Positions 2,546-22,456 are shown, counted from the stretch's first letter. The stretch: DNA of 32,000 bases from Candidatus Electrothrix yaqonensis (GCA_047651235.1 CP178758.1:2520001-2552000), one strand, 5' to 3'. Notes: generated by a model from the sequence alone, not told the origin. Program-made: numbers and translations.

Positions 2546-2842
2546 ATGTTTCTACTCGGAAATTTTATACTTGCGCTTGCCAAACTGATTAATGTCGCCT
2601 TTTCCGCCTATGTCTGGATTGTCATCGCCCGGGCTGTCATATCCTGGGTGAATCCTGATCCGTATAATCCTATTGTCCGCTTTCTGATTCAGGCCACTGA
2701 TCCGCTGCTTCGGAAAATACAGCGTTATATCCCGTCCATGGGAGGAATAGATCTGAGTCCCATGATTCTGATTCTGGCCATTGTCTTTCTGCAGAGCTTT
2801 ATTGTGCCGACTCTGACCCAGATCGGCATGAATCTGCGTTGA
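2546..2842 (+). CDS. yggT: YggT family membrane protein
   Basis: 98 aa with two hydrophobic segments and ARAVISWVNPDPYNPIVRFLIQATDPLLRKIQRYIP, which is typical of the YggT/Ycf19 family. Confidence 0.85.
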   Translation: MFLLGNFILALAKLINVAFSAYVWIVIARAVISWVNPDPYNPIVRFLIQATDPLLRKIQRYIPSMGGIDLSPMILILAIVFLQSFIVPTLTQIGMNLR

Positions 2843-2854
2843 ATCTTTGGACCG

Positions 2855-3151
2855 ATGTCGTATCTGCAGGTTCAGTCCGACGGCAGTCTCCTCCTCTCTC
2901 TGTATGTCCAGCCCCGATCTGCCCGCAATGAAATCGCCGGGCTGCATGGAGATGCCGTAAAACTGCGCCTTACTGCGCCGCCGGTGGACGGCAAGGCCAA
3001 CAAGGCGGTCATTACCTTTCTGGCAAAATGCTTCAAAATTCCTAAATCTGCTGTGCAGATCAGGAGCGGCCAGCAAAGTCGGATCAAAAAAATTCTGCTG
3101 AACAGCGTTGAAGAAGAGCGCGTCCGTTCCCTGCTGGAGCAAGAATTATGA
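2855..3151 (+). CDS. DUF167 (YggU-like) protein
   Basis: 98 aa. LYVQPRSARNEIAGLHGDAVKLRLTAPPVDGKANKAVITFLAK matches the DUF167 signature (PP.DGKAN). It sits next to yggT, as is common. Confidence 0.85.
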   Translation: MSYLQVQSDGSLLLSLYVQPRSARNEIAGLHGDAVKLRLTAPPVDGKANKAVITFLAKCFKIPKSAVQIRSGQQSRIKKILLNSVEEERVRSLLEQEL

Positions 3152-4596
3152 GAAGAAAACAGCGACGAGTGAAACGACTGAAAACTATTCTGGAGGTTTT
3201 TTCCGACGCGTGGGATCTTTATACACGCAGGGCCCTGTCTGTCCTGCTTGTCACTCTGCTGGCGCCCGTGATAACGGTGATTGTCCTGGCTGGCTGCGGA
3301 GCAGCAGCCTTTATCGGCCTGGGTGGAGAGCAGGCATTTACCGGTGATCTGCGGCAGATGCTGCTCAATCCGGCAGTTTTGGGGGCGGGAGCTGCGTTTA
3401 TTCTGCTGGCCGGACTGATGATTACTTGGTGCCAGACAGCGGTGCTGACTGTTGCCGTTGATGAAGAACGGGATATTTTAGGAGGGCTGGCAGCGGGCTG
3501 GAAATATGTCTTTTCTCTGCTCTGGATAGGGAGCCTTTATTTCGGCATCATCATGACCGGTATGCTGTTGATTGTTCCAGGTCTTGTTCTGGCCCTGTCC
3601 ATGTCCCTCTGTTTCTATATCATGATCGAGGAGGAAATTACCGGGATTGATACACTCATGGCCAGCCGTCTGTACATGCGGGGCCATTGGTGGAATACCC
3701 TGCTGAAATTCCTGCCGGTCTGGCTGCTCTCCCTGCTGATCGGCCTGATTCCTGTTGCCGGGCAGGTGCTTGCCTTTCTTTTCACCCCGTTTGTGCTGTT
3801 TTATGGCGTGGTTGTTTATCGTAACCTCAAAGAAGTCACAGGAGAGGTTGATCCAAGTGACTGCTGCAGGCCGCTGTGGGTGCTGATGGGCACTTTCGGT
3901 ATGCTGCTTCCTCTGCTCGCCTTTGTCGGTGCTGTTCTTGCATTCGGGCCTCGGCTCCAGGAAAAGCTGCCGCAGATACAGCACCAAGTCAATCAGATCG
4001 TGGGATCGGAGATATTTCCGCTGCAGACAGGTGGTGCAGGATTACCGTCTGTCCTGCAGCTTGCTTCAGTGGACGGCTTTCTGGTCTGGCGCGACCCGGT
4101 CAACGATACGCATAATCCTCTGCTGGATATCAGAGAGGTCTCGGCAAAAGGAGATGCAGGAGAACTGCAGCTCAGGGTACGGCTTGCCCGTCCTTTTGCT
4201 GACTATTTTGCTGCTGCCAAGGCCGGAAGGAGCGAGCCGCTGGTCAGCTTTTACCTTGATACAGATCAGGACCGTGCAACCGGCGGTTCTCCGTTTAGTA
4301 ACGGACAGGGCAGAAACGGGTATGATATGGATATCGAGGTGCAGTTACGTGCTCAGTCTGCTGAGCAGAACACGCCTGCGGGAGTGAATACAGGAATCTA
4401 CAGAGTTGACCGTCGGGAAAACAGGTCTTTCCAGGGCACACTGGATGACAGTGCAGTGAAAATTACCGGCGATACCTTGACCATACGTTTGCCGTACAGT
4501 CAGTTAAGTACCACCGGTAAGGGGGCTGTCCGGATCTGCTACCGGGAAACAGGGCAGCAGACTCCGGCAGAAGATAAACTGGTTCCGTTGAAGTAA
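3148..4596 (+). CDS. multi-pass membrane protein with a C-terminal soluble domain, function unknown
   Basis: 482 aa. ATGA overlap with the DUF167 gene. The first ~270 aa hold about 6 hydrophobic helices. The C-terminal ~200 aa are hydrophilic and look beta-rich. Confidence 0.7.
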   Translation: MRRKQRRVKRLKTILEVFSDAWDLYTRRALSVLLVTLLAPVITVIVLAGCGAAAFIGLGGEQAFTGDLRQMLLNPAVLGAGAAFILLAGLMITWCQTAVLTVAVDEERDILGGLAAGWKYVFSLLWIGSLYFGIIMTGMLLIVPGLVLALSMSLCFYIMIEEEITGIDTLMASRLYMRGHWWNTLLKFLPVWLLSLLIGLIPVAGQVLAFLFTPFVLFYGVVVYRNLKEVTGEVDPSDCCRPLWVLMGTFGMLLPLLAFVGAVLAFGPRLQEKLPQIQHQVNQIVGSEIFPLQTGGAGLPSVLQLASVDGFLVWRDPVNDTHNPLLDIREVSAKGDAGELQLRVRLARPFADYFAAAKAGRSEPLVSFYLDTDQDRATGGSPFSNGQGRNGYDMDIEVQLRAQSAEQNTPAGVNTGIYRVDRRENRSFQGTLDDSAVKITGDTLTIRLPYSQLSTTGKGAVRICYRETGQQTPAEDKLVPLK

Positions 4597-4602: not shown

Positions 4603-5001
4603 TCAGTCTTTCGGGACAACCGGATAATTGCTCATTTCCCATTCCTTCCAGCCTCCGTTGAGTGCGTAGACATTGCTAAAGCCTTTCTCCATGAGCATGC
4701 GTGCGACATAACCGCTGCTGCCCAGCCCTTCGCAGGCGCAATACAGGACCAGCGGGGTACTTTTATGAAAGTTTTCCGCCCAAGTCTCAAGCTGATCAAT
4801 AGGCAGGCGGATCGCTCCCGGAATTTTGCTGTTGCTGGAATCCCAGTCGTTGTCACTGCGGACATCCAGGATGGTGAATTCCTGGGTACCGAGTTCTGCT
4901 CTGAGCTCTTCTTTGCTGATGGTGGGGACGTCAGCAGCAAGGGCCGGAAGTGCAGCTGTGCAGAGAAAAACAGCAGCAACCAGCAATAAAATTTTTTTCA
5001 T
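4603..5001 (-). CDS. periplasmic single-domain rhodanese (sulfurtransferase), Cys form
   Basis: 132 aa. Signal peptide MKKILLLVAAVFLCTAALPALA. Active-site loop YCACEGLGSSGYVARMLMEKGF followed by LNGGWKEW, typical of GlpE/PspE-like rhodaneses. Confidence 0.85.
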   Translation of the reverse strand: MKKILLLVAAVFLCTAALPALAADVPTISKEELRAELGTQEFTILDVRSDNDWDSSNSKIPGAIRLPIDQLETWAENFHKSTPLVLYCACEGLGSSGYVARMLMEKGFSNVYALNGGWKEWEMSNYPVVPKD

Positions 5002-5450
5002 GACTTTTCCTCTTCTGTTGTACTTTTCCCGTCTTCAGCAGAACGGTTTACTTTTTTTACTTTTTTCTCCACCGGAAAATTCTTTTCTGTCCATTCCCGC
5101 CAGCCTCCTTTGAGAACATAGACCTCGGTGTACTCTTTTTCCATGAGCAGGCGTACCAAACTGGCACTGCTATGTTCATTCTTTCAGGAACAATAAACAA
5201 CAATGGTTCTGTCTTTCGGCAGATCGGCTGCCCATTTTTCCATAGTGGCCTGAGTTGCCCGGATTGCTCCGGGAATCTTTGTCGCAGCGGCCTGCCAGCC
5301 GCCTTCCGAGCGTGCATCCAGAATGGTGATGTCCTCAGAAGAAAGTTGCTCCTTAAGTTCGTCAGTACGCATAAACCGGATGTCGTCAGCAGCGACCGCC
5401 TGTGTCAGTCCGCTGAATAAAAAGATAATGAGCAGCAATATTCTGTTCAC
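4998..5450 (-). CDS. periplasmic rhodanese paralogue with in-frame UGA (probable selenocysteine) at the catalytic position
   Basis: GTG start at 5450 with an AAGGAG SD. Signal peptide MNRILLLIIFLFSGLTQAVA. The listed 88-aa ORF stops at TGA 5186..5184, but the same frame stays open for 61 more codons to TGA 5000..4998. Those codons read KNEHSSASLVRLLMEKEYTEVYVLKGGWREWTEKNFPVEKK..., the conserved rhodanese C-terminal half. The final stop overlaps the ATG of the downstream paralogue (ATGA). Confidence 0.6.
5146..5171 (-). promoter_or_regulatory. SECIS-like hairpin downstream of the in-frame UGA
   Basis: Minus-strand RNA: UGA, 12 nt, then AGCAG-UGCCA-[GUU]-UGGUA-(CGC bulge)-CUGCU. That is 10 bp in total with G and U in the apical loop, about 23 nt after the UGA. 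Folded by eye only. Confidence 0.45.
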
Positions 5451-5740
5451 TTTCTTTCTCCTTTTTTATTAATTGGAAAGATCTCACCGTAAAAAACGCC
5501 TCAGCCCTCTATTCCGGAGGGTAATAACGAGCCGCGTTTTTTTCGCATTCCTCAATAAATTGCCCTTACTGTACAGTACGTAACATAAAGTGTACAGTCT
5601 TTTTATCAGAGGAACCAATTCAAAAGATGGGGTGCGGAAAGGACATGCGCACGGATATTTAGTTTCCGCAGAAACTCAAATGATTATGAAGTGCTCACGG
5701 AAAACAGCGAGGCGATGATTCAGATTTATGATCAGCATTC

Positions 5741-5846
5741 TTATAACTGATGTTACGCACGCAAATAAAAGATCAGTAAGTTACGAGACACCCAAAGCGT
5801 AGAATCTGCCGATTTTGCGTTTCGGCTGCGTAACATCAGCTTATAA
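5741..5846. repeat. long imperfect inverted repeat / hairpin in non-coding DNA
   Basis: TTATAACTGATGTTACGCA (5741-5759) pairs with TGCGTAACATCAG(C)TTATAA (5827-5846), giving 19 bp with one bulged C. It is extended by CGCAAA/TTTGCG after an internal loop. Confidence 0.6.
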
Positions 5847-5975
5847 AAAGTAAGAAGACCGGCTCAGCAGGTTTTTAAAAACAGCTTCTTAGCAGGGCCT
5901 GTCAATACCGCATTCGTAACAATTTTTTCTTCATCCTCTTGTAATGATTCCCGATCCAAAGTAAGGCTTCACCGG

Positions 5976-6007
5976 CAACAACAGCTTCATTTTTTTTGTG
6001 TGAACAG
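5976..6007. repeat. left inverted repeat bounding the 6144-6470 ORF unit
   Basis: CAACAACAGCTTCATTTTTTTTGTGTGAACAG. The reverse complement of 6574-6604 is CAGCAACAGCTTAATTTTCTTGTGTGAACAG, about 28 of 32 positions identical. Confidence 0.7.
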
Positions 6008-6025
6008 GCCTTGGTATACAAAATC

Positions 6026-6146
6026 AAGGAGGTATAGCTGGAGCAGTATAAACTGAATACAGGATCAGCTATCTGAAAGGCGTGAAGGCAAAACTTATGC
6101 CTCTTGTGGGCATATTCAAATTATGTTGCTCCAGCTATAGTACATG
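6026..6146 (+). promoter_or_regulatory. split translation-initiation region: SD, 13-bp stem enclosing about 81 nt, then the ATG
   Basis: AAGGAGG at 6026-6032 is followed directly by TATAGCTGGAGCA (6033-6045). That pairs perfectly with TGCTCCAGCTATA (6127-6139), which is followed by GTAC and ATG (6144). There is no SD-like sequence next to the ATG itself. Confidence 0.45.
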
Positions 6147-6470
6147 GCTTGGAAATGGTATGATATTAAGAGTTACAAGGTGTCCTCAGGAGGAGGCCGA
6201 TATTACGGAGGCGTACAACTGTTCGGAGAAGGGTTCTATGGATTACTGACGTTCCATAAGGACGGGCCATTGCCTTCCGCATCAGCTCCTATGACGCACG
6301 GTCAACGATTTTACGGGCACTTGGACTTTCAGCAAATGCAGATGATTGTGGATCTGCTGCGCAACGAGGCTCCGGTGCGTTTCGGTTGGTATGAGAAAGA
6401 TCCCAATCTGTTTCACCTCATGACAGGACAGGAACCTGTCGGGGAAGGTGATGGAACCCTTACGGAATAA
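6144..6470 (+). CDS. hypothetical protein (orphan, 108 aa)
   Basis: Clean ORF with Gly/Tyr/Trp-rich composition and no motif recognised. It lies inside the IR-bounded unit. Confidence 0.5.
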   Translation: MAWKWYDIKSYKVSSGGGRYYGGVQLFGEGFYGLLTFHKDGPLPSASAPMTHGQRFYGHLDFQQMQMIVDLLRNEAPVRFGWYEKDPNLFHLMTGQEPVGEGDGTLTE

Positions 6471-6573
6471 AAGCGTAAAGCAATCGTCCGGAAACAGACT
6501 GAGATATGCGGTTTATTGAAGATTATGATCTTCCGTCATAGCTGAGACTATTTTGCTTAAAGAGAGATAGGGT

Positions 6574-6604
6574 CTGTTCACACAAGAAAATTAAGCTGTT
6601 GCTG
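6574..6604. repeat. right inverted repeat bounding the 6144-6470 ORF unit
   Basis: CTGTTCACACAAGAAAATTAAGCTGTTGCTG, the partner of 5976-6007. Confidence 0.7.
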
Positions 6605-6643
6605 AAGTTTCACCGACCTCTGCGTATTTTCCCTGCACATAAT

Positions 6644-6661
6644 CCCCCCCCCAAAAAAAAA
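6644..6661. repeat. C9A9 double homopolymer tract
   Basis: CCCCCCCCCAAAAAAAAA read directly. It lies about 200 nt upstream of the 6859 gene. Confidence 0.9.
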
Positions 6662-6728
6662 TTCAGACTTTGAAGCCATAGCATGATGGTCCCTGCTCCC
6701 GGGTTATCGGTTGTCTTTCACTGAATCA

Positions 6729-6747
6729 GTTTGAGTTTGAGTTTGAG
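6729..6747. repeat. (GTTTGA)x3 tandem hexamer
   Basis: GTTTGAGTTTGAGTTTGAG read directly. Confidence 0.9.
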
Positions 6748-6858
6748 CTGAAAGTTCCTTTCTTTGAAAGAATAGTTCCTTACATTATCTTAAAATTACA
6801 GGTAAAATCATAATAAATATAGGCGATCAACACCATCCTTCAGTATTTCCGAAAGAAA

Positions 6859-7596
6859 ATGTTTAAAAAAAAGAGCATAATAGCACTGAAAATCGTCATC
6901 GTGGTATATCTTCTGCTTCCCTCCTCAGCCTGCTGCACACCAAGTAATGCAGATATATTCTTTAAAACAGGCAACATGGAAAGATCCTTCGGAAATCATG
7001 AGGAGGCCAAAAAGGCGTACAGGGAGGCAGAGAAGCTCTACAGACTTGAACAGAACCAGTCGGGACTGGCCGAAGCGCTCCTCGAAATCGGCGATATGGA
7101 GAGATCATTCGGACATCATGACGCAGCCAGAAAAGCGTACATGGAAGCGGAAAAGCTCTACAGACTTGAGCAGAATACGCCGGGACTGGCCGAGGTGTTC
7201 CACGGAATCGCTGAATTGGAAAGCAGGCTCGGAAATTCAGATGCAGCCCTGAAAGCATACAACGAAGTAAATAATTTCTACAGAAAAATCCATAATCAAC
7301 AGAAAACGGAAAAAAAGTTCAATAACCCGCAGGAGAATCTCCCCAAAAAAAACATCGATCAGGAATTATTCAATATCACCCTGAAAATAATCGCAGCGAT
7401 AATCATACTGACAGGTGCTGTAAGCATAATTATTATCGACTGGAAACTGTTTATTCAAAATAACAAAAGAACGTCAGATAACATTTGCAGGATAAAACAA
7501 ATAATTACTTTTTTACGCAGGATGAAGAATAATTTGTTTCCAGCAGCTTTATCTCTCTTCGTGCTGCAGCAGGAGTTTTGCCGGACCATCGTTTAA
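6859..7596 (+). CDS. TPR-like repeat protein with N-terminal signal/anchor and C-terminal TM helix
   Basis: 245 aa. Hydrophobic N-terminus, then 40-aa repeats (GNMERSFGNHEEAKKAYREAEKLYRLEQNQSGLAEALLEI / GDMERSFGHHDAARKAYMEAEKLYRLEQNTPGLAEVFHGI / a third, diverged copy), then the TM segment IIAAIIILTGAVSIIII. The 3' end overlaps the convergent AraC-family gene by 92 nt, so the exact C-terminus is uncertain. Confidence 0.6.
   Translation: MFKKKSIIALKIVIVVYLLLPSSACCTPSNADIFFKTGNMERSFGNHEEAKKAYREAEKLYRLEQNQSGLAEALLEIGDMERSFGHHDAARKAYMEAEKLYRLEQNTPGLAEVFHGIAELESRLGNSDAALKAYNEVNNFYRKIHNQQKTEKKFNNPQENLPKKNIDQELFNITLKIIAAIIILTGAVSIIIIDWKLFIQNNKRTSDNICRIKQIITFLRRMKNNLFPAALSLFVLQQEFCRTIV
6970..7209 (+). 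repeat. 2 x 120-bp tandem repeat (a third degenerate copy runs to about 7300) inside the TPR-like gene
   Basis: 6970-7089 and 7090-7209 align without gaps at roughly 80% identity by eye. Confidence 0.85.
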
Positions 7597-8598: not shown

Positions 8599-9189
8599 TT
8601 ATTTATTCAGACAGCATTTCTTGTACTTTTTTCCGTTGCCGTTGTCCTGATGCGCCTGCTGGATCGTCGGGAAGGCTTCTGCCGCCTTGAAGTCAAGCAG
8701 GTCACCGACAAAAAGGCCGTTCAGAATAGGATCATTCCGGCGGTACTGAGCCAGCGCTTTTTCAATACCGGCAACACATGCCTCCCTGGTTTCCGGATGC
8801 TTTCTTCCAATATGACTCAGGCCGGAAGCAGCGGCAGAACGTGCATACAAAGTACGCGCGGTATCGCCCGCATATCGGCTCAGTTCCCGGATCGCGGGTT
8901 CACCGATCAGGGCAAATACCTTGGGTAGATCCTCACTTATCCAGTCGTCATCATATTCATCAACGCGGTAGAGCAGGTCGAGCAAGGCAGGAACCGCCTC
9001 GGCGGCCTGCAGCATTCCCAAGGTGCGCCAGGCGTGCAGCGACGCCCATACCTCGCTGCTTTCTGAATCTGCCTGGTGGAGTTCTTCATCACCGATCATT
9101 TTGATGAGTTCGGGAATGTGCTCCCGGGTCAGGCCGAGTTCCTGGTAGACAGACCAGTCTTTGATATCAAATGCGCTGCCGTAGGTCAC
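8599..9189 (-). CDS. DUF1186-like protein with a degenerate SEC-C motif tail
   Basis: 196 aa. Helical repeat region (VPALLDLLYRVDEYDDDWISEDLPKVFALIG) and a C-terminal GKKYKKCC. The usual preceding CxC of the SEC-C motif is absent. GTG start. Confidence 0.65.
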   Translation of the reverse strand: MTYGSAFDIKDWSVYQELGLTREHIPELIKMIGDEELHQADSESSEVWASLHAWRTLGMLQAAEAVPALLDLLYRVDEYDDDWISEDLPKVFALIGEPAIRELSRYAGDTARTLYARSAAASGLSHIGRKHPETREACVAGIEKALAQYRRNDPILNGLFVGDLLDFKAAEAFPTIQQAHQDNGNGKKYKKCCLNK

Positions 9190-9441
9190 GAGCTGACGGG
9201 TTCGGTGTATTGGTTGGTATTCATGAGTTCATGAGGCATGTGTATGGGATAGGAGTTGATTTTTGATCAGCAGATTCTACTGCAGGGTCTATGAAGAAGC
9301 AAATGCTTTCTGGGAGTTAGGAGGGAATGGTGTTGACGGATGCGGAAAGGGGAGTTAGAACAAACAGAAAGCTTCCTCGGAAAGGATATGGTGAGTCAGG
9401 TAGGACGAACGAAAAAAGGTATTCAAGGGAGGATAAGGACT

Positions 9442-12400
9442 ATGGCGGAGAAACTCCATGCGACCAAGCCGCAAAAGAGGCATCTTATGAGCACACTCGG
9501 AGAACAATGGGTCACTAGACGTGATGGATATCGTTCAAAGACCGGCTGGGCCTTACAGGTTGTGCAGGATACCCTTGCCATGCAGGTCACCATGCCGTTG
9601 AGATTATATGATGTCAATGCGGCAAAGAGTATTGAGGGCTATTTTGATGAGTTAGAATATGATCTACAGGGAAAAAGGGAATATTCTAACCAGGAGACAG
9701 GAGACTTATTATGCTCTATAGAAGCTACAGGATTAACCAGGAAATTCAGTAGCTATTATTATTCCCCATGGGCAACCCGGTCGAGCAATAATGATATGCT
9801 GATCGAGAAGATTTCTTCATGGAATGTATGGCAATGTTTTCAGTACGTCATCATGAAGGAAATACATAAAAATTATCTGGATAACCTTGATAATATAACC
9901 TTAACGGTATGTGAAAAGTTAATCTACTACTTTTATCGTATAAGGACAGACAAGAGTGATATGGATTTTATTCTCGTCGGCGGACCGAGAATTGATATTC
10001 CTTGCAATGAAGGAACGTGCAGTATTGAAGAAACAGTAGATTTTTTTCAAAAATTTGGGACTGTCCTGATAGATAGTCAGGCACCTCAATGGACCAGGCC
10101 GGACAGAACAGACCTTACAATATTATGCAGAGCAGTGAACACGCCTGATGAGGTAAGAGAACAACTGCAACAAACAGGTAAGAGTGTAAAAAGGCTTTTT
10201 GATATTGACATTAGCCCTGAGATACATGAGGATATTATTTTTAATAGGAAAACTGTCATGAAAATAGCGAGACATGCCTTTGATCGCGCTAGTTCTCATC
10301 GTGACACCTCTGTTAATACCTTTTATATCCCGATTAATCAGCGGAAGGACAATACTATTCAGCTCCATATAGATAATTCAAAAAGACAATGGAAAATTAT
10401 TCGAGCAATCAACAGACCCTCTGAGGCTGATTCTTCATTCATAGAAGAATCAGCTGAAACTATACTGTTTGAACAAAATAGAATTTTTTATTTTCACCAA
10501 AGACTCAAACTTCTTCGTTCATGGATAGAGCATCATGTTGGAATCATTGCAGCCGAGCATACAGCAGAAACGGGAGATTCGATAGATCCTATTGTCAATA
10601 AACTTGCTGCACAAATAGCTGATTTACTTCTGGCTGAAACAGCCTCAATTTTTCGCTACGATTATCATACAGAGAGTCTTTGTGCCCTTGCACTCTACTA
10701 TTCAGGAGGGGACCGGATGCAGGGTGCTGCAGAGTGGAAAGAATCACAAATGCATTTAATACGGGAAGCCGCGAAGGATAAGGAGAAAAGAAAATCAAGT
10801 ATAAGCTACCGAGTGAAAGACGGGAAGAAGAAAGACCGGCTTTGTTATTTTTATGATCATAAAACGGGGATTGCCGACCCTCTTGAGGAAACACTTCTTT
10901 CAGCGGCCAGCGATACCTATGAACGGCCAAAGAGCGGCATGGCACTTCCCATCTATATACATGGGCGCCTTTTCGGTGTTTTGGAGGTCTCCGGCCTCTG
11001 TGAATACCAATTTGGTCAGGATGATCTTTACTACGCCTCCTTAATAGCTGATGAAATCGGACGCAATCTCTATCAGAAATATGTTTGGCAGTATATTAAT
11101 TATGTAATCAAAGAAACAAATATACACGCTGATTCGCAACAGAAATATAATGCTTTATGTGAAGCAGCCTGTAAAATTTTTATGGCTGAAACAAGCACAT
11201 TCTGGAAACCGGATAACAGCCGTAAAGCGTGTCATCCTATTGGCTGGTTTAACAGAGAAGATCTCAACGAGATCTGTGAAGACGAAAATTGCGAGAGTAG
11301 ATTGGAAGAAGATTACGGCAGTTCTATAGGCACAGCTATTAAGAAGCTATTAGGTAACCCTGATGAATATTATGCGTGTTCAGATATCCAGACATTGAAA
11401 GAGAATGATCCAGAAGGGTGGAATGCTAATACAATCAATGAAATGAAGCCACAACGACGATGGATACTTGAAAATGAAATAACATCTGTGGTTGTTATTC
11501 CGCTTTATCCCTGGGAAAAGAGAGAGGAACGCGGGGAGTCTTTTCAATTCATCCTCTGTCTGTACTATAAGGACTCAGAAAGAAAAGATCCTCTTGGTAG
11601 CCAATGGAACCCGACTGTAAAGTTTGTTGCTCATAATTTTGGCTTACACCTTGAGACGATAAAACTAGAAAAAGATAAAGATACGCTTGAAGCTGAAACG
11701 ATCAAATTAGCAAACGATAAAGATACGCTCGAAGCTGCGAAAGCATCCCGTGAGAAAGAGATAAAAGGCATGGAGCAAAAGATCAATGAGCTTGGAACAA
11801 CGATTGATGAGAAAAACAGATTACAAAAGAAGAAGGGCCTTATCGAACATGAGTTAAAAGGACAGATACCTCTGGTGCTGGAAAAAGCGGGTAATATTCT
11901 TGACTCAATACGGAAAACACCGAGGGGAAGGTTGATAATAGATAGACAGAAAGCATTCCGTCTTGAAGAGTGGATGCAGGACTTGGAGATATATAAACAG
12001 GATTTACATCTCATGCTCCTCCTTCTCAATGATGACAAGTTAGCTGATGAGACACCTGATATAGGAAGACTTACATTTAATATTTCTGAATTACGTGGTA
12101 AAAAAATAACCAAGAAACGAGTCAAGGTTCGTGAGGTATTTAACAGCCTCTATCGAGGAACAAACTATGATCGTTGCCGTAAGAATATACAGGATGATAC
12201 TGCTCTTTCAGGCGAAATATGGCCTGCGGTCCTGATAGCAGAAGAACATCTCACCAGAATACTCTCTAACCTCATTTCTAACGCCGTAAAATATTCTCTT
12301 CCTCATACGTCAATCTCGGTAAAAGGAGAGTTTGATAGGTTTCAAAACTTTACACTTTCTATTTCAAATTATACAGCACCCTTTAGCGAAGAGTTTGATA

Positions 12401-12633
12401 TTTCCCGTCTCAAGCTTTATGGTGTTCGAGGGTCGAATAATATAGAAAACATTTCCGGTAAAGGTTTGGGTTTGTATCTTGTTGATGGGCTATGTTCTTA
12501 TAATAGCTTAGGTCTTGATTTTGATTACCAGGAGTCGGAATATGATGGCATACTGTGCGGGAAGTTTACAGCCAATCTCTTATTTCCTTGTGACAGTATC
12601 CTTATAAAGACACCAGAGGAGAAAACAATATGA
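9442..12633 (+). CDS. large soluble sensor protein: unknown ~400-aa N-domain, two GAF-like domains, coiled coil, histidine-kinase-like DHp and HATPase_c
   Basis: The ORF is open from 9340, but ATG 9442 has a good SD (AAGGGAGG, 9425-9432). GAF-like blocks are ...LLLAETASIFRYDY...LPIYIHGRLFGVLEVSG and ...IFMAETSTFWKP...VVVIPLYPW. A coiled coil follows. H-box-like IEHELKGQIPLV, N-box LSNLISNAVKYS, G2-like GKGLGLYLV. The G1 DxGxG position reads SNYTAPF. No TM segment was seen. Confidence 0.8.
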   Translation: MAEKLHATKPQKRHLMSTLGEQWVTRRDGYRSKTGWALQVVQDTLAMQVTMPLRLYDVNAAKSIEGYFDELEYDLQGKREYSNQETGDLLCSIEATGLTRKFSSYYYSPWATRSSNNDMLIEKISSWNVWQCFQYVIMKEIHKNYLDNLDNITLTVCEKLIYYFYRIRTDKSDMDFILVGGPRIDIPCNEGTCSIEETVDFFQKFGTVLIDSQAPQWTRPDRTDLTILCRAVNTPDEVREQLQQTGKSVKRLFDIDISPEIHEDIIFNRKTVMKIARHAFDRASSHRDTSVNTFYIPINQRKDNTIQLHIDNSKRQWKIIRAINRPSEADSSFIEESAETILFEQNRIFYFHQRLKLLRSWIEHHVGIIAAEHTAETGDSIDPIVNKLAAQIADLLLAETASIFRYDYHTESLCALALYYSGGDRMQGAAEWKESQMHLIREAAKDKEKRKSSISYRVKDGKKKDRLCYFYDHKTGIADPLEETLLSAASDTYERPKSGMALPIYIHGRLFGVLEVSGLCEYQFGQDDLYYASLIADEIGRNLYQKYVWQYINYVIKETNIHADSQQKYNALCEAACKIFMAETSTFWKPDNSRKACHPIGWFNREDLNEICEDENCESRLEEDYGSSIGTAIKKLLGNPDEYYACSDIQTLKENDPEGWNANTINEMKPQRRWILENEITSVVVIPLYPWEKREERGESFQFILCLYYKDSERKDPLGSQWNPTVKFVAHNFGLHLETIKLEKDKDTLEAETIKLANDKDTLEAAKASREKEIKGMEQKINELGTTIDEKNRLQKKKGLIEHELKGQIPLVLEKAGNILDSIRKTPRGRLIIDRQKAFRLEEWMQDLEIYKQDLHLMLLLLNDDKLADETPDIGRLTFNISELRGKKITKKRVKVREVFNSLYRGTNYDRCRKNIQDDTALSGEIWPAVLIAEEHLTRILSNLISNAVKYSLPHTSISVKGEFDRFQNFTLSISNYTAPFSEEFDISRLKLYGVRGSNNIENISGKGLGLYLVDGLCSYNSLGLDFDYQESEYDGILCGKFTANLLFPCDSILIKTPEEKTI
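11653..11736 (+). repeat. 2 x 42-nt in-frame tandem repeat in the kinase coiled coil
   Basis: GAGACGATAAAACTAGAAAAAGATAAAGATACGCTTGAAGCT / GAAACGATCAAATTAGCAAACGATAAAGATACGCTCGAAGCT, encoding ETIKLEKDKDTLEA / ETIKLANDKDTLEA. Confidence 0.9.
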
Positions 12634-13115
12634 AAAATAAACATATTTTATGGATTGAGGATTTAGAACATTCAGTTGCTGACGAGAAGTGTTGGTGCGA
12701 GAGTCAAGGTTTTCTGGTTAAAATGGTTAACCATCCTGCGAGGTTTGCTGAATATCTGGAAAGGAACAAAGAGAATATTCGACTTTTGATACTAGACATC
12801 ATGCTTGCAGGCGTGAATAATTTGAAAACTATAGGAGTTTGCGACTCAGATACTCTTGGAGGAAGAGAGGCTGGCTGGGAACTTGTCCGGCGTTTTCTTC
12901 GTTCTGAACCAAAATCACCTTATGCTAAAATACCTGTGCTTATCGTTTCTGCACGAATGAAGTCTGAAAGAGATGATGAAGATATTTTTACTTACAGCGC
13001 AGATGGAATGGGGGAAATTCGATATATTGAGAAGAGAAATCCAGATATTAACTGGTCAGAACAGTTTAAAAACGATGTTGTTGATCTAAGCTCTATAGGG
13101 AGAAATATCGTATGA
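12630..13115 (+). CDS. stand-alone response-regulator receiver domain protein (no output domain)
   Basis: 161 aa. ATGA overlap with the kinase gene. ILWIEDLE (acidic pocket), LLILDIML (phospho-acceptor Asp candidate), IPVLIVSA (conserved Ser/Thr position). An insertion lies between beta3 and alpha3. Confidence 0.75.
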   Translation: MKNKHILWIEDLEHSVADEKCWCESQGFLVKMVNHPARFAEYLERNKENIRLLILDIMLAGVNNLKTIGVCDSDTLGGREAGWELVRRFLRSEPKSPYAKIPVLIVSARMKSERDDEDIFTYSADGMGEIRYIEKRNPDINWSEQFKNDVVDLSSIGRNIV

Positions 13116-13477
13116 AGAAAAACCTGCTTCTTTTGGCCACTGTTTTTTCAATCATTTACATCCCACTTTTGTTTCTATTTTTTTTCATTGTTCCAGATTC
13201 CTCTATAGAACAGCACAGAGAGAATATATCAAATGTTCTTGATAAGCCAGCATCTGTTGATCATAAGGAACAAGAAGATAGAAGCCGATCTGAAAAATAT
13301 GATAGATTTAACGAACAGCTCTCAAACGCTGTAGCAATTGTAGCAAGAGAAAATGAAAACACAGAAAATATAATACTCTTATTAAATATAGTAGCAGTCC
13401 TTATTCCTATAATATTTTCCATCATAACTTTATTTTTTTGCAGTCAAAAGGAGAAAAGCAAATTGAATCTAATGTAA
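13112..13477 (+). CDS. small membrane protein, two predicted TM helices
   Basis: 121 aa. ATGA overlap with the receiver gene. Hydrophobic LLLLATVFSIIYIPLLFLFFFIV and IILLLNIVAVLIPIIFSIITLFF. It may be fused to the next ORF by a -1 shift at the T7 run (13433-13439). Confidence 0.55.
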   Translation: MKKNLLLLATVFSIIYIPLLFLFFFIVPDSSIEQHRENISNVLDKPASVDHKEQEDRSRSEKYDRFNEQLSNAVAIVARENENTENIILLLNIVAVLIPIIFSIITLFFCSQKEKSKLNLM

Positions 13478-14220
13478 CAGGAAAGATAAACGATATTGTT
13501 GAACACAAAGAGAAAGAACTGAACTCAAGATTGATTGAGAGACTGAATATTAAAATTGAAGGAAAGAAAAATGAACTGACTGACAGTATAGAAATTAAAA
13601 TTAACGATCTAATAGAAAAAAATACTTTTGGGTGCGAAGAACACTTGGAAGGAAAACTATCTGAGATGAAAGTTGATCTTTCAAAAGAGTGGAAAAATAT
13701 CAAAAATGAATTTTCTGGCATGCAGGATGAATTGCTTCAGCACATGAAAGTTGAAGATGATAAAATATTAAGTCTTAGAAATGAGTTATCTGAAGAATGG
13801 AAAAACTTGAAAGATGAGCTATCCGGTATGCAGGACGAACTGTTTCAGTACATGAAAATTGAAGACACCCTTTCGTCCCGAATTAGAGACAGGAAAGCTC
13901 AAACAATTTTGAATCATTGGCTTAATGCAATGTACCAACTCAGAGATTCTTCAGAAAAAAAGTCTCTTTCTCTACTCCTCAAGCAGCACATAGAATTTAT
14001 TTTTTCACTGGAGCAGCTCTGTTCAACAGCACCGGAAACCATTGTTGACGGGCTGTTCTACCTTGAAGGCCATGCAGATGAGGTGCCAAGAAGCGACCTC
14101 CTTAATCTTCTGGGCGAACTCAAAAGACAGCAACGGCTCAATGAAAGAGATGTTTTTATTCCATTAAGAAGGCTGGAAATCAAACTCCAAGATACGGGCG
14201 AAGACAAGTTGGAAACCTAA
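13438..14220 (+). CDS. coiled-coil protein with internal repeats; start uncertain
   Basis: 260 aa from a TTG that lies inside a T-run with no upstream SD. The frame opens only at 13357, and no ATG/GTG precedes the TTG. Heptad-like Glu/Lys-rich sequence. Confidence 0.55.
   Translation: MQSKGEKQIESNVTGKINDIVEHKEKELNSRLIERLNIKIEGKKNELTDSIEIKINDLIEKNTFGCEEHLEGKLSEMKVDLSKEWKNIKNEFSGMQDELLQHMKVEDDKILSLRNELSEEWKNLKDELSGMQDELFQYMKIEDTLSSRIRDRKAQTILNHWLNAMYQLRDSSEKKSLSLLLKQHIEFIFSLEQLCSTAPETIVDGLFYLEGHADEVPRSDLLNLLGELKRQQRLNERDVFIPLRRLEIKLQDTGEDKLET
13678..13867 (+). repeat. in-frame duplicated segment, 108-nt period, in the coiled-coil gene
   Basis: LSKEWKNIKNEFSGMQDELLQHMKVED vs LSEEWKNLKDELSGMQDELFQYMKIED, starting at 13678 and 13786. 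Confidence 0.85.
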
Positions 14221-14239
14221 TTTCGTTTCAAATACAACC

Positions 14240-14275
14240 AAAAAGGGCAAATCGCAAAGCGATCCGCCCTTTCTG
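14240..14275. terminator. bidirectional Rho-independent terminator between the accessory operon and ppsA
   Basis: AAAAAGGGCaaATCGCaaaGCGATccGCCCTTTCT: a two-tier GC stem flanked by an A-run and a T-run. Confidence 0.7.
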
Positions 14276-14308
14276 AACTCCTCAGAGACTCAGCTGTAGC
14301 TCCTCATT

Positions 14309-16753
<2,445 letters not shown>

Positions 16754-19904: not shown

Positions 19905-20106
19905 ACTGCTGCCAGTTCGTAGATTGCGGGTGGGCGGGACAAACCCCGACATGGCCGACTCGCCTTATGATTGTCGGGGTTCGTGTCTCAGCCCGATCTA
20001 CGGGGCTTGGTTCAAATGCCGAGTATCGTTTTCGGCTTTAATGAAACATTACCAGTTCGGGTTGGCTATGTCATAAAACTGCCCCAGGACGGCATACCGT
20101 AATCAG

Positions 20107-20640
20107 CTAGTCTATACAGTCGGGGCCGTTTGAGGGTCGGAACGATATAGCATAACTGGTGTTGTCTTCTTGTGCTACAACCATCCCGTCACTGCAAGTA
20201 CCTGTAAAAAAGATGTTCTCGCCGGTATGTTCGTTTCTTAGTGAGACAGACATACGGTTAGGCCGAGACGGTAGCCAGGTCATACGAATGGAATAAGGAG
20301 AGTCAACATTGCAGCCATCCTTCTTGTAACAGTTGGTTAGAAGGGTGAGGTTAGATGCTCGCAATTGTTTATAGTAGTTTGTGCTCAACTTACTCGTGAA
20401 GTGTGAATCTACGTAGAACACCTCGAAATTCTCACCATCGTTCCCAGTGAACTTGAAATTCACTCTGTCTTCCTCGCAGTCATTATAGATATTTTCCTGT
20501 TGAGTTTGCAGAGAGCTCATCAGGAACCAGCAAGGGTCGAAGATGATTGGCCCGCCTAGTGATGCCGTAGCTGGCACAACGGCACCCACTACTCCTAACA
20601 AAAACATCATCTTCTTTTGGACTTGACTTCGGCATTTCAT
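20107..20640 (-). CDS. secreted Cys-rich hypothetical protein
   Basis: 177 aa. Signal-peptide-like MMFLLGVVGAVVPATASLG, about 8 Cys in the mature part, AT-rich, no motif recognised. Confidence 0.55.
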   Translation of the reverse strand: MKCRSQVQKKMMFLLGVVGAVVPATASLGGPIIFDPCWFLMSSLQTQQENIYNDCEEDRVNFKFTGNDGENFEVFYVDSHFTSKLSTNYYKQLRASNLTLLTNCYKKDGCNVDSPYSIRMTWLPSRPNRMSVSLRNEHTGENIFFTGTCSDGMVVAQEDNTSYAISFRPSNGPDCID

Positions 20641-20686
20641 GTCTCTCGCTCCTTTTTAGTAAAAAAAACTTAATTTTTTGAAAATA

Positions 20687-20726
20687 TGCCGATTCTGGTT
20701 TACGGCGAAGACCAGAAAGTACGGCA
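20687..20726. repeat. hairpin repeat, full copy (TGCCGATTCTGGT...ACCAGAAAGTACGGCA)
   Basis: TGCCG/CGGCA and TTCTGGT/ACCAGAA arms. A shorter copy is at 22832-22859 and a right-half copy at 22733-22742. Confidence 0.6.
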
Positions 20727-20792
20727 CTTGCTAAGTACCTTTCTATTTATGATTAGTCCAATTTACTTGTTGGCAGTTACTTTTGTCAAAAG

Positions 20793-20807
20793 TTTTTTTT
20801 TTTTTTT
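20793..20807. repeat. T15 homopolymer
   Basis: Fifteen consecutive T read directly, about 150 nt upstream of the 20640 start (which is on the opposite strand). Confidence 0.9.
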
Positions 20808-20852
20808 GTCTTAGGTTCTGTTGATATTTTATTCGTCCGTTATTAGGGTTAA

Positions 20853-21024
20853 ACCCCCCGCCTTTCAGGCGGGTAGCTTTCAGCCAGCAGTTGTTTTATA
20901 CTGACTGTTATGGAATACAGGAGCGGAAGTCATACCAAGTATAAAATAGAGTATCATTTTGTTTGGGTAACGAAGTATCGTTATCATATTCTACGTGGTG
21001 ATCTTGCCGAGCGGGTACGTGAGG
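20853..21024 (+). mobile_element. IS200/IS605-family left-end remnant (subterminal hairpin plus the first ~38 codons of tnpA)
   Basis: Hairpin CCCGCCtttcaGGCGGG (20857-20873) upstream of MEYRSGSHTKYKIEYHFVWVTKYRYHILRGDLAERV, the characteristic N-terminus of Y1 (HUH) IS200 transposases. The HUH and Tyr motifs are missing. Confidence 0.65.
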
Positions 21025-21356
21025 CAGCTTCCCTTAACACTGAGGTTGAGAAATTGAAAATTGGAGGATCGACAAATATGGCAGATGCCATCAGTCTGGC
21101 AACAAATAAACTCGCTGACAAAATGGGCGAGAAAATAATTTGTCTTGTGACCGATGGAATGCCGGATAATAGGCAGGCTGCGCTTGATGCGGCTGATCGG
21201 GCAAAAAGAGAACAAATTGACATTATGGCTATCGGTACAGATGATGCCGATAAAAATTTTCTCGAAGAAATTGTAACCCGCAAGGAGCTGTCAGTCAAAA
21301 TCGCAAGAGATCAGCTCGAACAAGGGATTGTCTCAATGGCCAAACTGTTGCCATGA
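20910..21356 (+). pseudogene. chimeric ORF: IS200 tnpA N-terminal fragment fused in frame to the C-terminal part of a vWA-domain protein
   Basis: After about residue 38 the sequence switches to KIGGSTNMADAISLA...IICLVTDGMPDN...IDIMAIGTDDAD. That is the distal half of a von Willebrand A fold. The DxSxS MIDAS start is absent. Confidence 0.6.
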
Positions 21357-21363
21357 CGGCTAA

Positions 21364-21618
21364 ATGAAACGCCGACACGCCATCAACCTGCTGACCCAAT
21401 GCAGGCAGGAGCTGAAGAACCATTTCGGTGTGACCAAGCTGCTGCTGTTCGGCTCAACCGTCCGCGATACAGCGACCGATGAAAGCGATGTGGACATTCT
21501 GGTCGCCTTTGACGGACCGGCGAACTCGAAACGATATTTCGGCCTTCTGTTTTTTCTGGAAGATTTACTGGACTGTACAGTAGACTTGGTGACGGAAAAA
21601 GCACTTCGGCCTGAATAA
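21364..21618 (+). CDS. nucleotidyltransferase-domain protein (MntA-like antitoxin type), C-terminally short, no partner toxin
   Basis: 84 aa. LLLFGSTVRDTATDESDVDILVAF matches the GS-x9-DxD minimal NTase motif. It ends at ...EKALRPE, whereas the related fragment at 22602-22724 continues LRPYVEKEGIYV. Confidence 0.65.
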   Translation: MKRRHAINLLTQCRQELKNHFGVTKLLLFGSTVRDTATDESDVDILVAFDGPANSKRYFGLLFFLEDLLDCTVDLVTEKALRPE

Positions 21619-21682
21619 ATCAGGGACAGACCCCGATTAGAGGTTCACATAACACGCCCAATAAAAGTGGGTTATGGTATCT

Positions 21683-22003
21683 TTATGAAGGAACGGCACG
21701 TACTTCAAAATTAATTTTGAATTTTTGCCGGAGAACCTTCAGGATCGCCGTCAGATTGTCCATAGTGGGATTGCCTTTGGCTGACAGCATTCTGTGAAGA
21801 CTCTTGCTGGGCTTTGTTGTTTCGTTCGCCAATGTTTCGAAACCTACTGTGGCATTTACCAAATCTCTAAGGATCAGTCTTGCAGTATCCGGTTCTCCGT
21901 TAAGAAATAAGGTAACAGCCTCGTCAAGTAAAGCGGCGGCAAATTCAGGTTCGCGTTCGGCCCGTTCATTAATTGTTTTTTTATAATCTCTGACTATCGG
22001 CAT
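21683..22003 (-). CDS. higA: HigA-family antitoxin (addiction module antidote, HTH)
   Basis: 106 aa. PEFAAALLDEAVTLFLNGEPDTARLILRDLVNATVGFETLA...SLHRMLSAKGNPTMDNLTAILKVL is typical of this family. Confidence 0.8.
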   Translation of the reverse strand: MPIVRDYKKTINERAEREPEFAAALLDEAVTLFLNGEPDTARLILRDLVNATVGFETLANETTKPSKSLHRMLSAKGNPTMDNLTAILKVLRQKFKINFEVRAVPS

Positions 22004-22006
22004 AGT

Positions 22007-22342
22007 TCACCTCTTTTTCTGACGATACGCCGTCATGCGCTTCTTGTACTCTTTGAAGAGATCATTAACCTTTTTAATATCGGATTGTTGGCTTTTTTTC
22101 ACCCCTCCTCCAAAAAGGATTATCAGATCATCTCCCCTTTGAGCCAGATAAATTCTGTATCCCGGCCCCCAATTGATACGGTACTCACCAATTCCACTGA
22201 ACCATTTTATTCCTGATGTATTCCCAAGTTCCAGCCGGGCCAAGGCCACAGTGACTTTAGCAGCCGCCTGACGATCAAGCTTATCAAACCATTTCTTAAA
22301 CGAATTTGAGCCGTCTTCTCGAATATACTCTTCAATCTTCAT
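22007..22342 (-). CDS. higB: HigB-type toxin (addiction module killer protein, RelE/ParE superfamily)
   Basis: 111 aa. FKKWFDKLDRQAAAKVTVALARLELGN...GIGEYRINWGPGYRIYLAQRGDDLIILFGGGVKKSQQSDI is typical. It sits upstream of higA with a 3-nt gap. Confidence 0.8.
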   Translation of the reverse strand: MKIEEYIREDGSNSFKKWFDKLDRQAAAKVTVALARLELGNTSGIKWFSGIGEYRINWGPGYRIYLAQRGDDLIILFGGGVKKSQQSDIKKVNDLFKEYKKRMTAYRQKKR

Positions 22343-22456
22343 AACACTACATATAGTAACATTTAAGTTACCGCACCGTCAAGTAAGTAAATTTTTGTAA
22401 TAACGAAAGAAGCGCACCAAAAAACAACATGCACCAGACAGTGCAGTGATGGGGGG

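Follow-up and report, generated by a model that had tools for sequence, protein, structure and literature searches.

To our knowledge, Detocs is the only characterised defensive two-component family, besides systems regulated by two-component proteins such as Ambrosia. The Detocs operon encodes DtcA, DtcB and DtcC, of which DtcC is an effector with its own receiver and DtcB serves as a phosphate buffer, and its effectors are swappable, with transmembrane ones in some operons (bioRxiv 10.1101/2023.01.24.525353). Ambrosia combines XRE, MTase, HATPase, REC-wHTH and HNH components, so that a HATPase/REC pair is part of a defence operon validated by experiment (bioRxiv 10.1101/2025.09.30.679545).

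The locus studied here lies in a stretch of 32,000 nucleotides from Candidatus Electrothrix yaqonensis (GCA_047651235.1, CP178758.1:2520001-2552000), referred to as the window, with positions counted from its first letter. It is a conserved and undescribed module whose three genes code for a sensor kinase, a receiver that stands alone and a coiled-coil protein anchored in the membrane. Like Detocs, it is a three-gene operon that pairs a soluble sensor histidine kinase with a stand-alone receiver and has swappable effectors, and the proposed path likewise leads from sensing through a His-Asp relay to a growth-arresting effector. Unlike Detocs, the cassette has a single receiver, its third protein (two transmembrane segments, a coiled coil and a helical domain) carries none, and its sensor consists of an N-terminal domain (N-domain) followed by two GAF domains instead of TPR. 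Identity with Detocs was rejected: by the definition of that system (bioRxiv 10.1101/2023.01.24.525353), the effector DtcC joins an N-terminal receiver to a toxic domain, and the effector here has no receiver attached, in agreement with the original prediction, which had set the two apart on the same grounds. PADLOC did not place the cassette proteins in the DtcA, DtcB or DtcC families, in a release that may not hold Detocs models. The cassette also differs from Ambrosia, whose receiver is a wHTH transcription factor on RM-like genes, in having no DNA-binding, nuclease or methylase component.

Three further groups of proteins resemble parts of the cassette. Bacteriophytochrome histidine kinases (PaBphP, PDB 9eut) share with gene 1 the order of N-terminal domain, GAF, GAF-like domain, coiled coil, DHp and CA on a helical spine, and PaBphP was the best Foldseek match of the full gene 1 model (E=2e-15 over 854 columns; TM 0.17-0.23, identity 9-12%). 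In contrast to bacteriophytochromes, gene 1 has an N-domain that shows no significant match to PAS (E=0.24 for the best PDB match), a degenerate G1 box and different partner genes, and it may lack a bilin-binding site. The CheA-CheY-MCP system is similar in using a single-domain receiver as a diffusible output and in that a 2-TM coiled-coil membrane protein is encoded beside the kinase. However, gene 1 is DHp-type and HisKA-like without the CheA P1-P5 domains, Pfam and NCBIfam searches gave no MCPsignal, HAMP or CheW, and a novel helical domain forms the C-terminal end of the membrane protein; an MCP/CheA chemosensory array was rejected because of the DHp-type kinase and the lack of MCPsignal and CheA matches. 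DSR1/DSR2, ThsA and SIR2-type LmuA resemble sister fusion proteins of gene 1, in which a large sensor is likewise fused with a domain of the NADase type, but the sensor body is unrelated to the HEAT-like sensor of DSR2 or the SLOG sensor of ThsA, and the protein in the window has a kinase core, not SIR2/TIR.

Gene order and composition of the cassette

The GC content of the cassette is 38.8%, compared with 49.8% and 52.2% in the flanks, which agrees with the AT-rich composition noted originally. Four co-directional ORFs were called at 9340-12633, 12630-13115, 13112-13477 and 13438-14220, the last two being halves of one gene, gene 3/4 (Table 1). As had been read from the sequence, ATGA overlaps are present at the first two junctions, at 12630 between genes 1 and 2 and at 13112 between genes 2 and 3/4. 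Downstream, ppsA (14309-16753, minus strand) is convergent with the cassette, and the hairpin between them is likely a bidirectional terminator. The upstream neighbour is a weak DUF1186-like gene (8599-9189, minus strand; 20.3 bits, under the Pfam cut-off of 22). The prediction of four co-directional genes between ppsA and a DUF1186 gene was thus right about the ORFs, their direction and, with a weak DUF1186, their neighbours, and wrong about the number of genes, which is three. The neighbours in the window are housekeeping genes, which counts against a defence reading and does not bear out a defence-island setting. No tRNA, integrase or flanking repeats marking a low-GC island were found in the window, a further point against the defence reading.

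Table 1. Features of the cassette, in window coordinates
Feature	Position	Strand	Basis
Shine-Dalgarno GGGAGG, 9 nt before gene 1 start	9427..9432	+	sequence read
Gene 1, soluble sensor histidine-kinase-like protein, 1063 aa	9442..12633	+	ORF call, L001 orthologue, Logan gene call
Family-specific N-terminal alpha/beta domain, aa ~1-373	9442..10560	+	alignments A2, A7
GAF domain 1, aa ~382-560	10585..11121	+	Pfam partial matches, model, invariant residues
GAF domain 2, aa ~565-754	11134..11703	+	model secondary structure; aligns to phytochrome GAF/PHY tandem
42-bp tandem duplication	11652..11737	+	2 copies, 86% identical
Signalling helix and DHp domain	11722..12048	+	hhalign
CA (HATPase_c) domain	12109..12591	+	Pfam HATPase_c 31.4 bits vs cut-off 26.4
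Gene 2, stand-alone divergent receiver, 161 aa, XOF32731.1	12630..13115	+	hhalign, alignment A5
Gene 3/4, 2-TM, coiled coil and C-terminal domain, 369 aa when repaired	13112..14220	+	relatives, frame repair
TM segment 1, aa ~3-33	13118..13210	+	hydropathy scan
TM segment 2, aa ~83-109, ends in T7 run	13358..13439	+	hydropathy scan, sequence
T7 homopolymer, site of -1 frameshift	13433..13439	+	sequence
Internal duplication, 108-nt period	13674..13865	+	84 nt aligned, 76% identical
Conserved C-terminal helical region	13830..14217	+	~90% nucleotide identity to L001
C-terminal domain core, aa 283-366	13957-14208	+	motif [GA]L[GF].LE....[VL]P......L..LL..Q.RL.
G+C-rich hairpin, 18 pairs	14238..14276	no strand	between cassette and convergent ppsA

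The sensor kinase and the receiver

Gene 1 likely starts at ATG 9442, because GGGAGG is located 9 nt upstream, the start of the orthologue in the related locus L001 is equivalent, and an independent gene call (Logan) also gives 1063 aa; NCBI XOF32730.1 begins at what is M16 here (ATG 9487) and has 1048 aa. With a highest 19-residue hydropathy of 1.41, the product fits the soluble protein of ~1060-1097 aa that had been described, and it is predicted to be a soluble dimeric-type histidine kinase with a sensor body of ~750 aa before the DHp/CA core. Foldseek searches with its AF2 model (pLDDT 77, pTM 0.67) returned full-length bacteriophytochromes as the top matches, followed by HK853, HprS and WalK. 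In the model, the sensor body appears to consist of a new N-domain and the GAF-GAF tandem on a helical spine, in a phytochrome-like layout.

Conserved motifs of the N-domain are W36-A-L-Q-V..Q, PLRL, W110.T, HPL and G181-P182 (alignments A2 and A7). Structure searches with a model of this domain alone (pLDDT 76, pTM 0.79) gave no match below E=0.2 in PDB or BFVD, and there are only weak LOV/PAS and IclR-type similarities, in line with the earlier failure to assign this region to anything known. GAF domain 1 contains a conserved insert with the motif SI.YR...DP..E.LL; the Pfam GAF and GAF_2 matches are partial here (aa 523-576 of the 1097-aa ORF) and full in relatives. GAF domain 2 is a conserved homology region in 140 of the 154 relatives. 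The 42-bp tandem duplication, absent from L001, lengthens the coiled-coil linker by two heptads (14 aa).

The DHp domain aligned with EnvZ/HK853 in hhalign (99.4% probability, E=3e-21), and H803 in the motif HELKGQ (codon 11848-11850), the putative phospho-acceptor, falls on EnvZ H243 and is invariant in an alignment of 30 sequences. In the CA domain, the N-box NLISNAVKY and the G2 box GKGLGL are intact and align to the N and G2 boxes of EnvZ. The G1 box DxGxG is degenerate and reads S-N976-YTAP (N976 codon 12367-12369), with N976 invariant across the gene 1 family. By its motifs, gene 1 therefore has the H-box of a HisKA-type DHp, the N-box and the G2 box, and lacks the G1 box. The missing adenine-contacting Asp counts against an active kinase, but some active kinase families, e.g. 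AgrC-type, also lack the G1 box, so its loss does not imply inactivity. The originally described order of two GAF domains, a repeat-containing coiled coil and a kinase core is what Pfam, the model, hhalign and the duplication jointly point to.

Gene 2 scored 15.6 bits with Pfam Response_reg, below the threshold of 30.2, and aligned with CheY, Spo0F, PhoB and RR468 in hhalign at 95.9% probability (E=5.5e-9). Its D11, D56, S106/A107 and K135 align with D13, D57, T87 and K109 of CheY, and an insert of ~18 aa follows the putative phospho-acceptor D56 (codon 12795-12797). Gene 2 is thus predicted to be a single-domain receiver of the CheY type whose phospho-acceptor pocket is intact, and the hhalign match to canonical receivers upholds the earlier reading of a receiver domain only.

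The membrane protein and its frameshift

Gene 3/4 is split here into XOF32732.1 (121 aa) and XOF32733.1 (260 aa). In the related loci L001, L002, L006, L008, L010, L011, L013, L014 and L017, a single ORF of 259-455 aa covers everything from the TM segments through the coiled coil to the C-terminal domain, and one T added to the T7 run (T8) yields an in-frame ORF of 369 aa. Therefore, the third junction is a -1 frameshift and not the translational coupling at the T7 run that had been proposed; of the earlier genes 3 and 4, the 2-TM segment and the 260-aa coiled coil without an enzymatic motif stand as features and not as separate genes. Programmed frameshifting was considered and is unlikely because the T7 site is not conserved.

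The repaired product is predicted to cross the membrane twice (2-TM, N-in), to have its coiled coil in the cytoplasm and to end at the C-terminus in a conserved helical domain of ~90 aa. Its C-terminal region is ~90% identical in nucleotides to that of L001 and has a dN/dS of 0.21, whereas the upstream TM/coiled-coil part is not alignable; the 108-nt-period duplication copies the start of this conserved region. An HMM of the C-terminal domain matched the third genes of 10 further loci (E=3e-12 to 1e-37), with L015 as the sole exception, and no match to the domain was found in Pfam or PDB.

It is about an even chance that the locus in this genome is a decaying remnant in which the frameshift has inactivated the third gene. 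The gene is intact in all other loci, an independent Logan assembly also contains both split products, and the T7 site is not one at which programmed frameshifting would be expected. However, the frameshift aside, the ORFs of gene 1, gene 2 and each half of gene 3/4 are intact, two assemblies of the same reads could share an error in homopolymer length, and slippage at T7 could still give some full-length product. Because the membrane-protein gene carries the frameshift, the module in this genome is probably disabled or strongly attenuated.

Spread, relatives and possible function

The order kinase, receiver, third gene recurs at 12 independent loci, with identities as low as ~25%; a third gene is seen in 11 of these, and 10 of the 11 are of the 2-TM type. 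L015 carries an unrelated soluble protein in place of the third gene. Every receiver homologue directly follows a gene 1 homologue wherever upstream sequence exists, and a third gene follows the receiver wherever downstream sequence exists, which confirms the anticipated co-occurrence as a conserved cassette. Only 2 close homologues were found among 5.8e9 proteins and one locus only among GTDB species genomes. The cultured strain Desulfosudis oleivorans Hxd3 has an intact copy (WP_012176560.1 and two downstream genes). Cassette GC is below that of the flanks in every locus with flanks of useful length, and the sequences flanking the cassette in L001 and in the window are unrelated. In gene 1, dS is 0.03 in the N-domain and 0.6-0.9 in the rest, so recent recombination is indicated, and the cassette is mosaic between strains. 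With this composition and patchy spread, the cassette looks horizontally acquired or mobile, as was first suspected. All conserved segments are under purifying selection (dN/dS 0.07-0.21). Cassette copies were not found on viral contigs or plasmids, which counts against a defence reading. No family in PADLOC, Pfam or NCBIfam covers the cassette proteins, and profile searches with the same three collections found no DNA-binding or enzymatic output domain; the original prediction had anticipated both results, including the lack of a match to characterised families.

In about 5 of the 154 relatives, the N-domain and GAF-GAF sensor is fused to SIR2_2 (P0033, P0063, P0074 and P0095) or TIR_2 (P0116) in place of the kinase. 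The N-domain is common to both variants (HMM E-values of 1e-55 for P0033, 9e-40 for P0074 and 1e-21 for P0116). SIR2_2 and TIR_2 are NAD-consuming immune-type effectors, not regulatory outputs, and the SIR2 domain of the fusion proteins matched the PADLOC models of LmuA, ThsA and Dsr1. The three fusion loci examined have neither the receiver nor the third gene; a Cas3-like helicase is adjacent to one (L019, a SIR2 variant) and an nSTAND1 protein is near another. The small share of such fusions among the relatives counts against a defence reading. Among seven kinase-cassette contexts, a sample too small for statistics, two are RM/Abi islands: L006 with two RM systems, BrnT and a MORC-like GHKL ATPase, and L014 with an integrase remnant, an MmeI-type RM system and AbiEi/AbiEii. 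L010/L018 is ambiguous, with a PIN_12 protein, and four of the seven show no defence genes; the neighbours in L008, L015 and L017, as in the window, are housekeeping or signalling genes, which speaks against defence. PADLOC, proposed earlier as a check, gave no meaningful match of any cassette protein to a known defence model, the sole match being that of the HATPase region to PDC-M43B (16-28 bits).

Defence is plausible, with real but indirect support from the fusion of the same sensor to SIR2/TIR in relatives, from the RM/Abi genes that adjoin some cassettes and from the Cas3-like helicase next to a SIR2 variant. Our best explanation, held tentatively and at slightly less than even confidence, is that the cassette is a mobile three-gene phosphorelay module acting as a conflict or anti-phage system. 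Somewhat more tentative is the broader proposal that the new N-domain and GAF-GAF family are prokaryotic immune sensors, with output either through fused SIR2/TIR or through a His-Asp relay to a membrane effector. A cytoplasmic trigger would bind the sensor body, and the signal would pass down the coiled coil to cause autophosphorylation at His803, from which the phosphoryl group would be transferred to Asp56 of the receiver. [quoted passage not shown] Kinase, receiver and membrane protein together would be the functional equivalent of the SIR2/TIR that replaces the kinase in sister proteins. A long coiled coil with a helical domain is not typical of a pore-forming effector, which is a point against the defence reading.

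A real but rather doubtful alternative is an ordinary, non-immune accessory signalling module spread by horizontal transfer among sediment Desulfobacterota and relatives, in which the GAF-GAF kinase would sense a metabolite or second messenger in the cytoplasm and act through the receiver on a membrane scaffold for an envelope, motility or cell-cell process. The bona fide two-component core, the phytochrome-type sensory-kinase layout with GAF domains, which typically bind small molecules, the metabolic or signalling neighbours, the lack of a PADLOC match and the strong purifying selection all suit such a module, but it fits poorly with the fusion of the 750-aa sensor body to SIR2_2 and TIR_2, with the very patchy spread, consistently low GC and recombination mosaic, and with the RM/Abi neighbours in L006 and L014. 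Improbable is a membrane protein that serves as the input, its extracytoplasmic loop sensing an external or envelope cue and its coiled coil and C-terminal domain recruiting and controlling the soluble kinase in an MCP/CheA-like manner while the receiver acts on an unlinked target: an MCP-like topology, with two TM segments, an outer loop that is variable (~20-80 aa) and a long coiled coil in the cytoplasm, hypervariability of these parts beside a conserved C-terminal docking domain, and the distant targets of many single-domain receivers are compatible with it, but MCPsignal, HAMP or CheW-like matches are lacking in Pfam, the unrelated soluble protein in L015 fits swappable outputs better, and SIR2/TIR variants keep the full sensor body without a membrane partner, so sensing does not need the membrane protein.

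If the cassette is a plain signalling module, it still defines three families of uncharacterised proteins as well as a clade of kinases in which the nucleotide-binding box is non-canonical and invariant. If it is a conflict system as we propose, His-Asp phosphorelays would have been recruited to immunity more than once, and the cassette would represent a second defensive two-component class of distinct architecture, with receiver and effector separate, in which a membrane effector is gated by a CheY-like receiver that is not attached to it. The phytochrome-like GAF tandem would be an immune sensor interchangeable with SIR2/TIR outputs, and the module would open a tractable way into the conflict systems of cable bacteria and other sediment Desulfobacterota, about whose phages very little is known.

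Gene content of the cassette and its split third gene

The four open reading frames of the original prediction were confirmed at their positions, as were the two ATGA overlaps and the T7 run. The low GC content also holds: the cassette has 38.8%, and its flanks have 49.8% and 52.2%. The count of four genes does not hold, since genes 3 and 4 are one gene (gene 3/4), and the cassette therefore encodes a sensor kinase (gene 1), a receiver (gene 2) and a membrane protein. In the related locus L001, whose gene 1 shows 89% identity, a single 355-aa ORF stands where the window has genes 3 and 4, more distant loci likewise carry one ORF at this position, and one extra T in the T7 run restores a 369-aa protein. 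The run had been taken for a site of translational coupling and is instead a -1 frameshift site. Because it is absent from the orthologues, neither coupling nor programmed slippage accounts for it, and the -1 frameshift is either a mutation or a homopolymer error; programmed -1 frameshifting was rejected also for the non-canonical heptamer A-TTT-TTT. Both split products were seen in an independent Logan assembly too, which favors a real mutation. With its third gene frameshifted, the module may be inactive in this genome.

The gene 3/4 protein has two hydrophobic segments around a variable loop, a coiled coil and, at the C-terminus, a conserved helical domain of ~90 aa, and the window copy carries an internal 108-nt duplication. 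The protein had no match in Pfam, the PDB or PADLOC, and a PDB profile search with it returned nothing beyond weak matches and coiled-coil noise.

Downstream, ppsA is convergent with the cassette, with a strong hairpin between them; upstream, on the opposite strand, lie a DUF1186-like gene, whose label is tentative because its 20.3 bits fall under the Pfam 22-bit cut-off, and an AraC-type regulator. Farther away are nifU/nifS, PFOR and Ppx, indicative of a housekeeping neighborhood. No tRNA, Rfam family or boundary or flanking repeat marking an island was found in the window.

Positions of features in the window and in related loci
Feature	Sequence	Position	Strand	Remark
Cassette	window	9442-14220	+	genes 1, 2 and 3/4
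Segment coding for the N-domain	window	9570-10620		98-100% nucleotide identity to L001
Codon of Asn976	window	12367-12369		in 'SNYTAP'
TM/loop/coiled-coil segment, gene 3	window	13100-13830		unalignable to L001 though flanking segments are 80-90% identical; ~91% from about 13830
T7 run	window	13433-13439		
AAGGAG motif, Shine-Dalgarno-like	window	13447-13452		8 nt past the frameshift site; related copies at 10780 and 12616; might permit the downstream half to be re-initiated
Hairpin	window	14238-14276		
DUF1186-like gene	window	8599-9189	-	
Low-GC stretch (41-46%)	window	5000-7500		
TPR protein gene	window	6859-7596		in low-GC stretch 5000-7500
C9A9 homopolymer pair	window	6644-6661		in low-GC stretch 5000-7500
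Low-GC stretch (41-46%)	window	20000-23000		
T15 run	window	20793		in low-GC stretch 20000-23000
ORF, 482 aa	window	3148-4596	+	no Pfam match at E≤1e-3
ORF, 196 aa	window	2552-3142	-	no Pfam match at E≤1e-3
HATPase_c_3 and Methyltransf_35 genes	L006	14966-17153		directly after the cassette
Locus with intact cassette	L014, CP000859.1	3765032-3788142		
Third gene	L015	7173-8276		
Ldh/Mdh paralogues (77% identical)	L015	1897-2832, 8553-9488		bracket the cassette on this metagenomic contig

Sensor kinase and receiver

The gene 1 product is 100% identical to XOF32730.1. Its start is most likely ATG 9442, because GGGAGG lies 9 nt upstream and the same start is used in L001 and in the Logan gene call. 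An AF2 model built from 30 family sequences (pLDDT 77, pTM 0.67) showed, in order, an alpha/beta N-terminal domain specific to the family (N-domain, aa ~30-330), a pair of GAF domains connected through long helices, a helical linker of ~100 residues, the DHp and the CA domain. The closest PDB matches of the model were full-length bacteriophytochromes followed by the kinase cores of HK853, HprS and WalK, indicating a phytochrome-like layout, although identity to bacteriophytochromes is only ~10%. Gene 1 is at most a putative phytochrome. The N-domain, modelled alone with pLDDT 76 and pTM 0.79, carries motifs found family-wide; it had no significant match in the PDB or BFVD, with weak LOV/PAS and IclR-type similarities at E≥0.24. 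The coiled coil of gene 1 contains a 42-bp duplication, equal to two heptads, that is absent from L001.

The kinase core aligned with EnvZ/HK853 at 99.4% probability; His803 occupies the site of the phospho-acceptor, and both the N box and the G2 box are preserved, whereas in place of the G1 DxGxG box stands the invariant Asn976. Throughout the kinase family, Asn is invariant where GHKL ATPases have the adenine-contacting G1 Asp, and the G1 glycines are absent too. These changes may reflect a shift in nucleotide specificity, or the proteins may act in a pseudokinase-like manner.

Gene 2 reached 15.6 bits against Pfam, not significant alone, and a PDB profile search gave weak matches or noise only. 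Profile-profile comparison with CheY, Spo0F, PhoB and RR468 gave 95.9% probability (E=5.5e-9), with D11, D56, S106/A107 and K135 in register with the catalytic residues of canonical receivers and an insert of ~18 aa after the phospho-acceptor Asp. Gene 2 is a divergent yet apparently competent receiver without an output domain.

Conservation and mosaic character of the cassette

A sensitive search yielded 241 cluster representatives of the gene 1 family at E≤1e-3. Among the best 154 of these, the GAF-GAF region is common to 140, the N-domain is present at E≤1e-5 in 82, and 71 combine N-domain, GAF-GAF and kinase. Co-occurrence of the genes was borne out in 12 independent loci (window, L001, L002-5, L006/7, L008, L010/18, L011, L012, L013, L014, L015 and L017), in which, as far as sequence is available, a receiver homolog comes directly after the kinase and a third gene after that. 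As L012 ends before it, the third gene is visible in 11 loci; in 10 its product combines the conserved C-terminal domain with hydrophobic TM segments, of which the scan detected a single one in L017 and two in each of the others. The third gene of L015 encodes an unrelated soluble 367-aa protein; a nucleotide cyclase was rejected as its identity, since it has no Pfam match. Hosts include Electrothrix spp., a Lake Grevelingen Desulfobacteraceae MAG, a Thiotrichaceae MAG and the cultured Desulfosudis oleivorans Hxd3, whose intact cassette (L014) would be convenient to use in experiments.

Close relatives are extremely rare. Word-indexed protein searches, profile included, returned only 2-5 with either gene 1 or the third protein, a genome-collection scan with a 5-sequence alignment returned one locus, and a metagenome scan with the receiver profile returned 4. 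No copy was found on viral contigs or on plasmids.

Cassette GC is 5-20 points under the flanks wherever these are long enough (9 of 11 loci tabulated), and the flanks of L001 and the window are unrelated. Between these two loci, dS in gene 1 is 0.03 across the N-domain and 0.6-0.9 in the rest; in gene 3 the TM and coiled-coil part is not alignable and the C-terminal domain has a dS of 0.31. Both the dS contrast and the unalignable part point to diverged alleles having recombined; dN/dS lies at 0.07-0.21 throughout. A sharp recombination or gene-conversion boundary lies inside the gene 1 ORF, and the unalignable part of gene 3 resembles the result of a module swap, or else a hypervariable stretch.

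Relatives with SIR2 or TIR domains and the possible function

The original observation is largely right, and the genes form a real cassette, conserved and so far undescribed. Pfam, NCBIfam and PADLOC scans of the four ORFs and their relatives gave only generic HATPase/GAF matches and sub-threshold receiver matches, the PADLOC check proposed in the original prediction showed that no model covers the cassette, and our literature search found no described GAF-kinase, GAF-SIR2 or GAF-TIR defense family, nor any account of the cassette itself.

The most informative result on function is the fusion of the sensor body to SIR2 or TIR domains. The whole N-domain and GAF-GAF unit also occurs with a C-terminal SIR2_2 (P0033, P0063, P0074 and P0095) or an N-terminal TIR_2 (P0116); the SIR2 domain matches defense-type models, and one SIR2/TIR variant adjoins a Cas3-like helicase. 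The three loci examined (P0033, P0074 and P0116) have neither receiver nor third gene. It follows that the sensor can do without the membrane protein, which places the latter on the output side, and that the kinase, receiver and third protein stand where these relatives have an immune-type NADase. The third-gene replacement in L015 is consistent with a swappable effector.

Defense neighborhoods are suggestive in a sample below statistical use: of seven contexts around kinase cassettes, two (L006 and L014) are clear RM/Abi/TA islands, one has a PIN_12 protein, and four, including the window, have nothing. In L006, the cassette is directly followed by genes for a MORC-like GHKL protein and a methyltransferase, a pair that may be a separate uncharacterized system, and beyond them lie two N6/N4 methylases, a BamHI-like nuclease with an HTH controller, and BrnT. 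The L014 cassette has an integrase fragment, a MerR gene, an MmeI/Eco57I-type enzyme and AbiEi/AbiEii as neighbors.

An ordinary accessory signaling role is nearly as likely as defense. That the membrane protein, with its two hydrophobic segments, serves as a co-sensor is less likely, and improbable given sensor bodies that work without it. The cassette resembles Detocs in outline, but its receiver and target are separate, CheY-like, and the lack of a receiver in its effector excludes it from Detocs; it did not qualify as part of a chemotaxis array either.

We tentatively lean towards a conflict or defense function. A trigger acting on the sensor would start a phosphorelay from His803 of gene 1 to Asp56 of gene 2, and the relay would act on the conserved C-terminal domain of the membrane protein to activate it.
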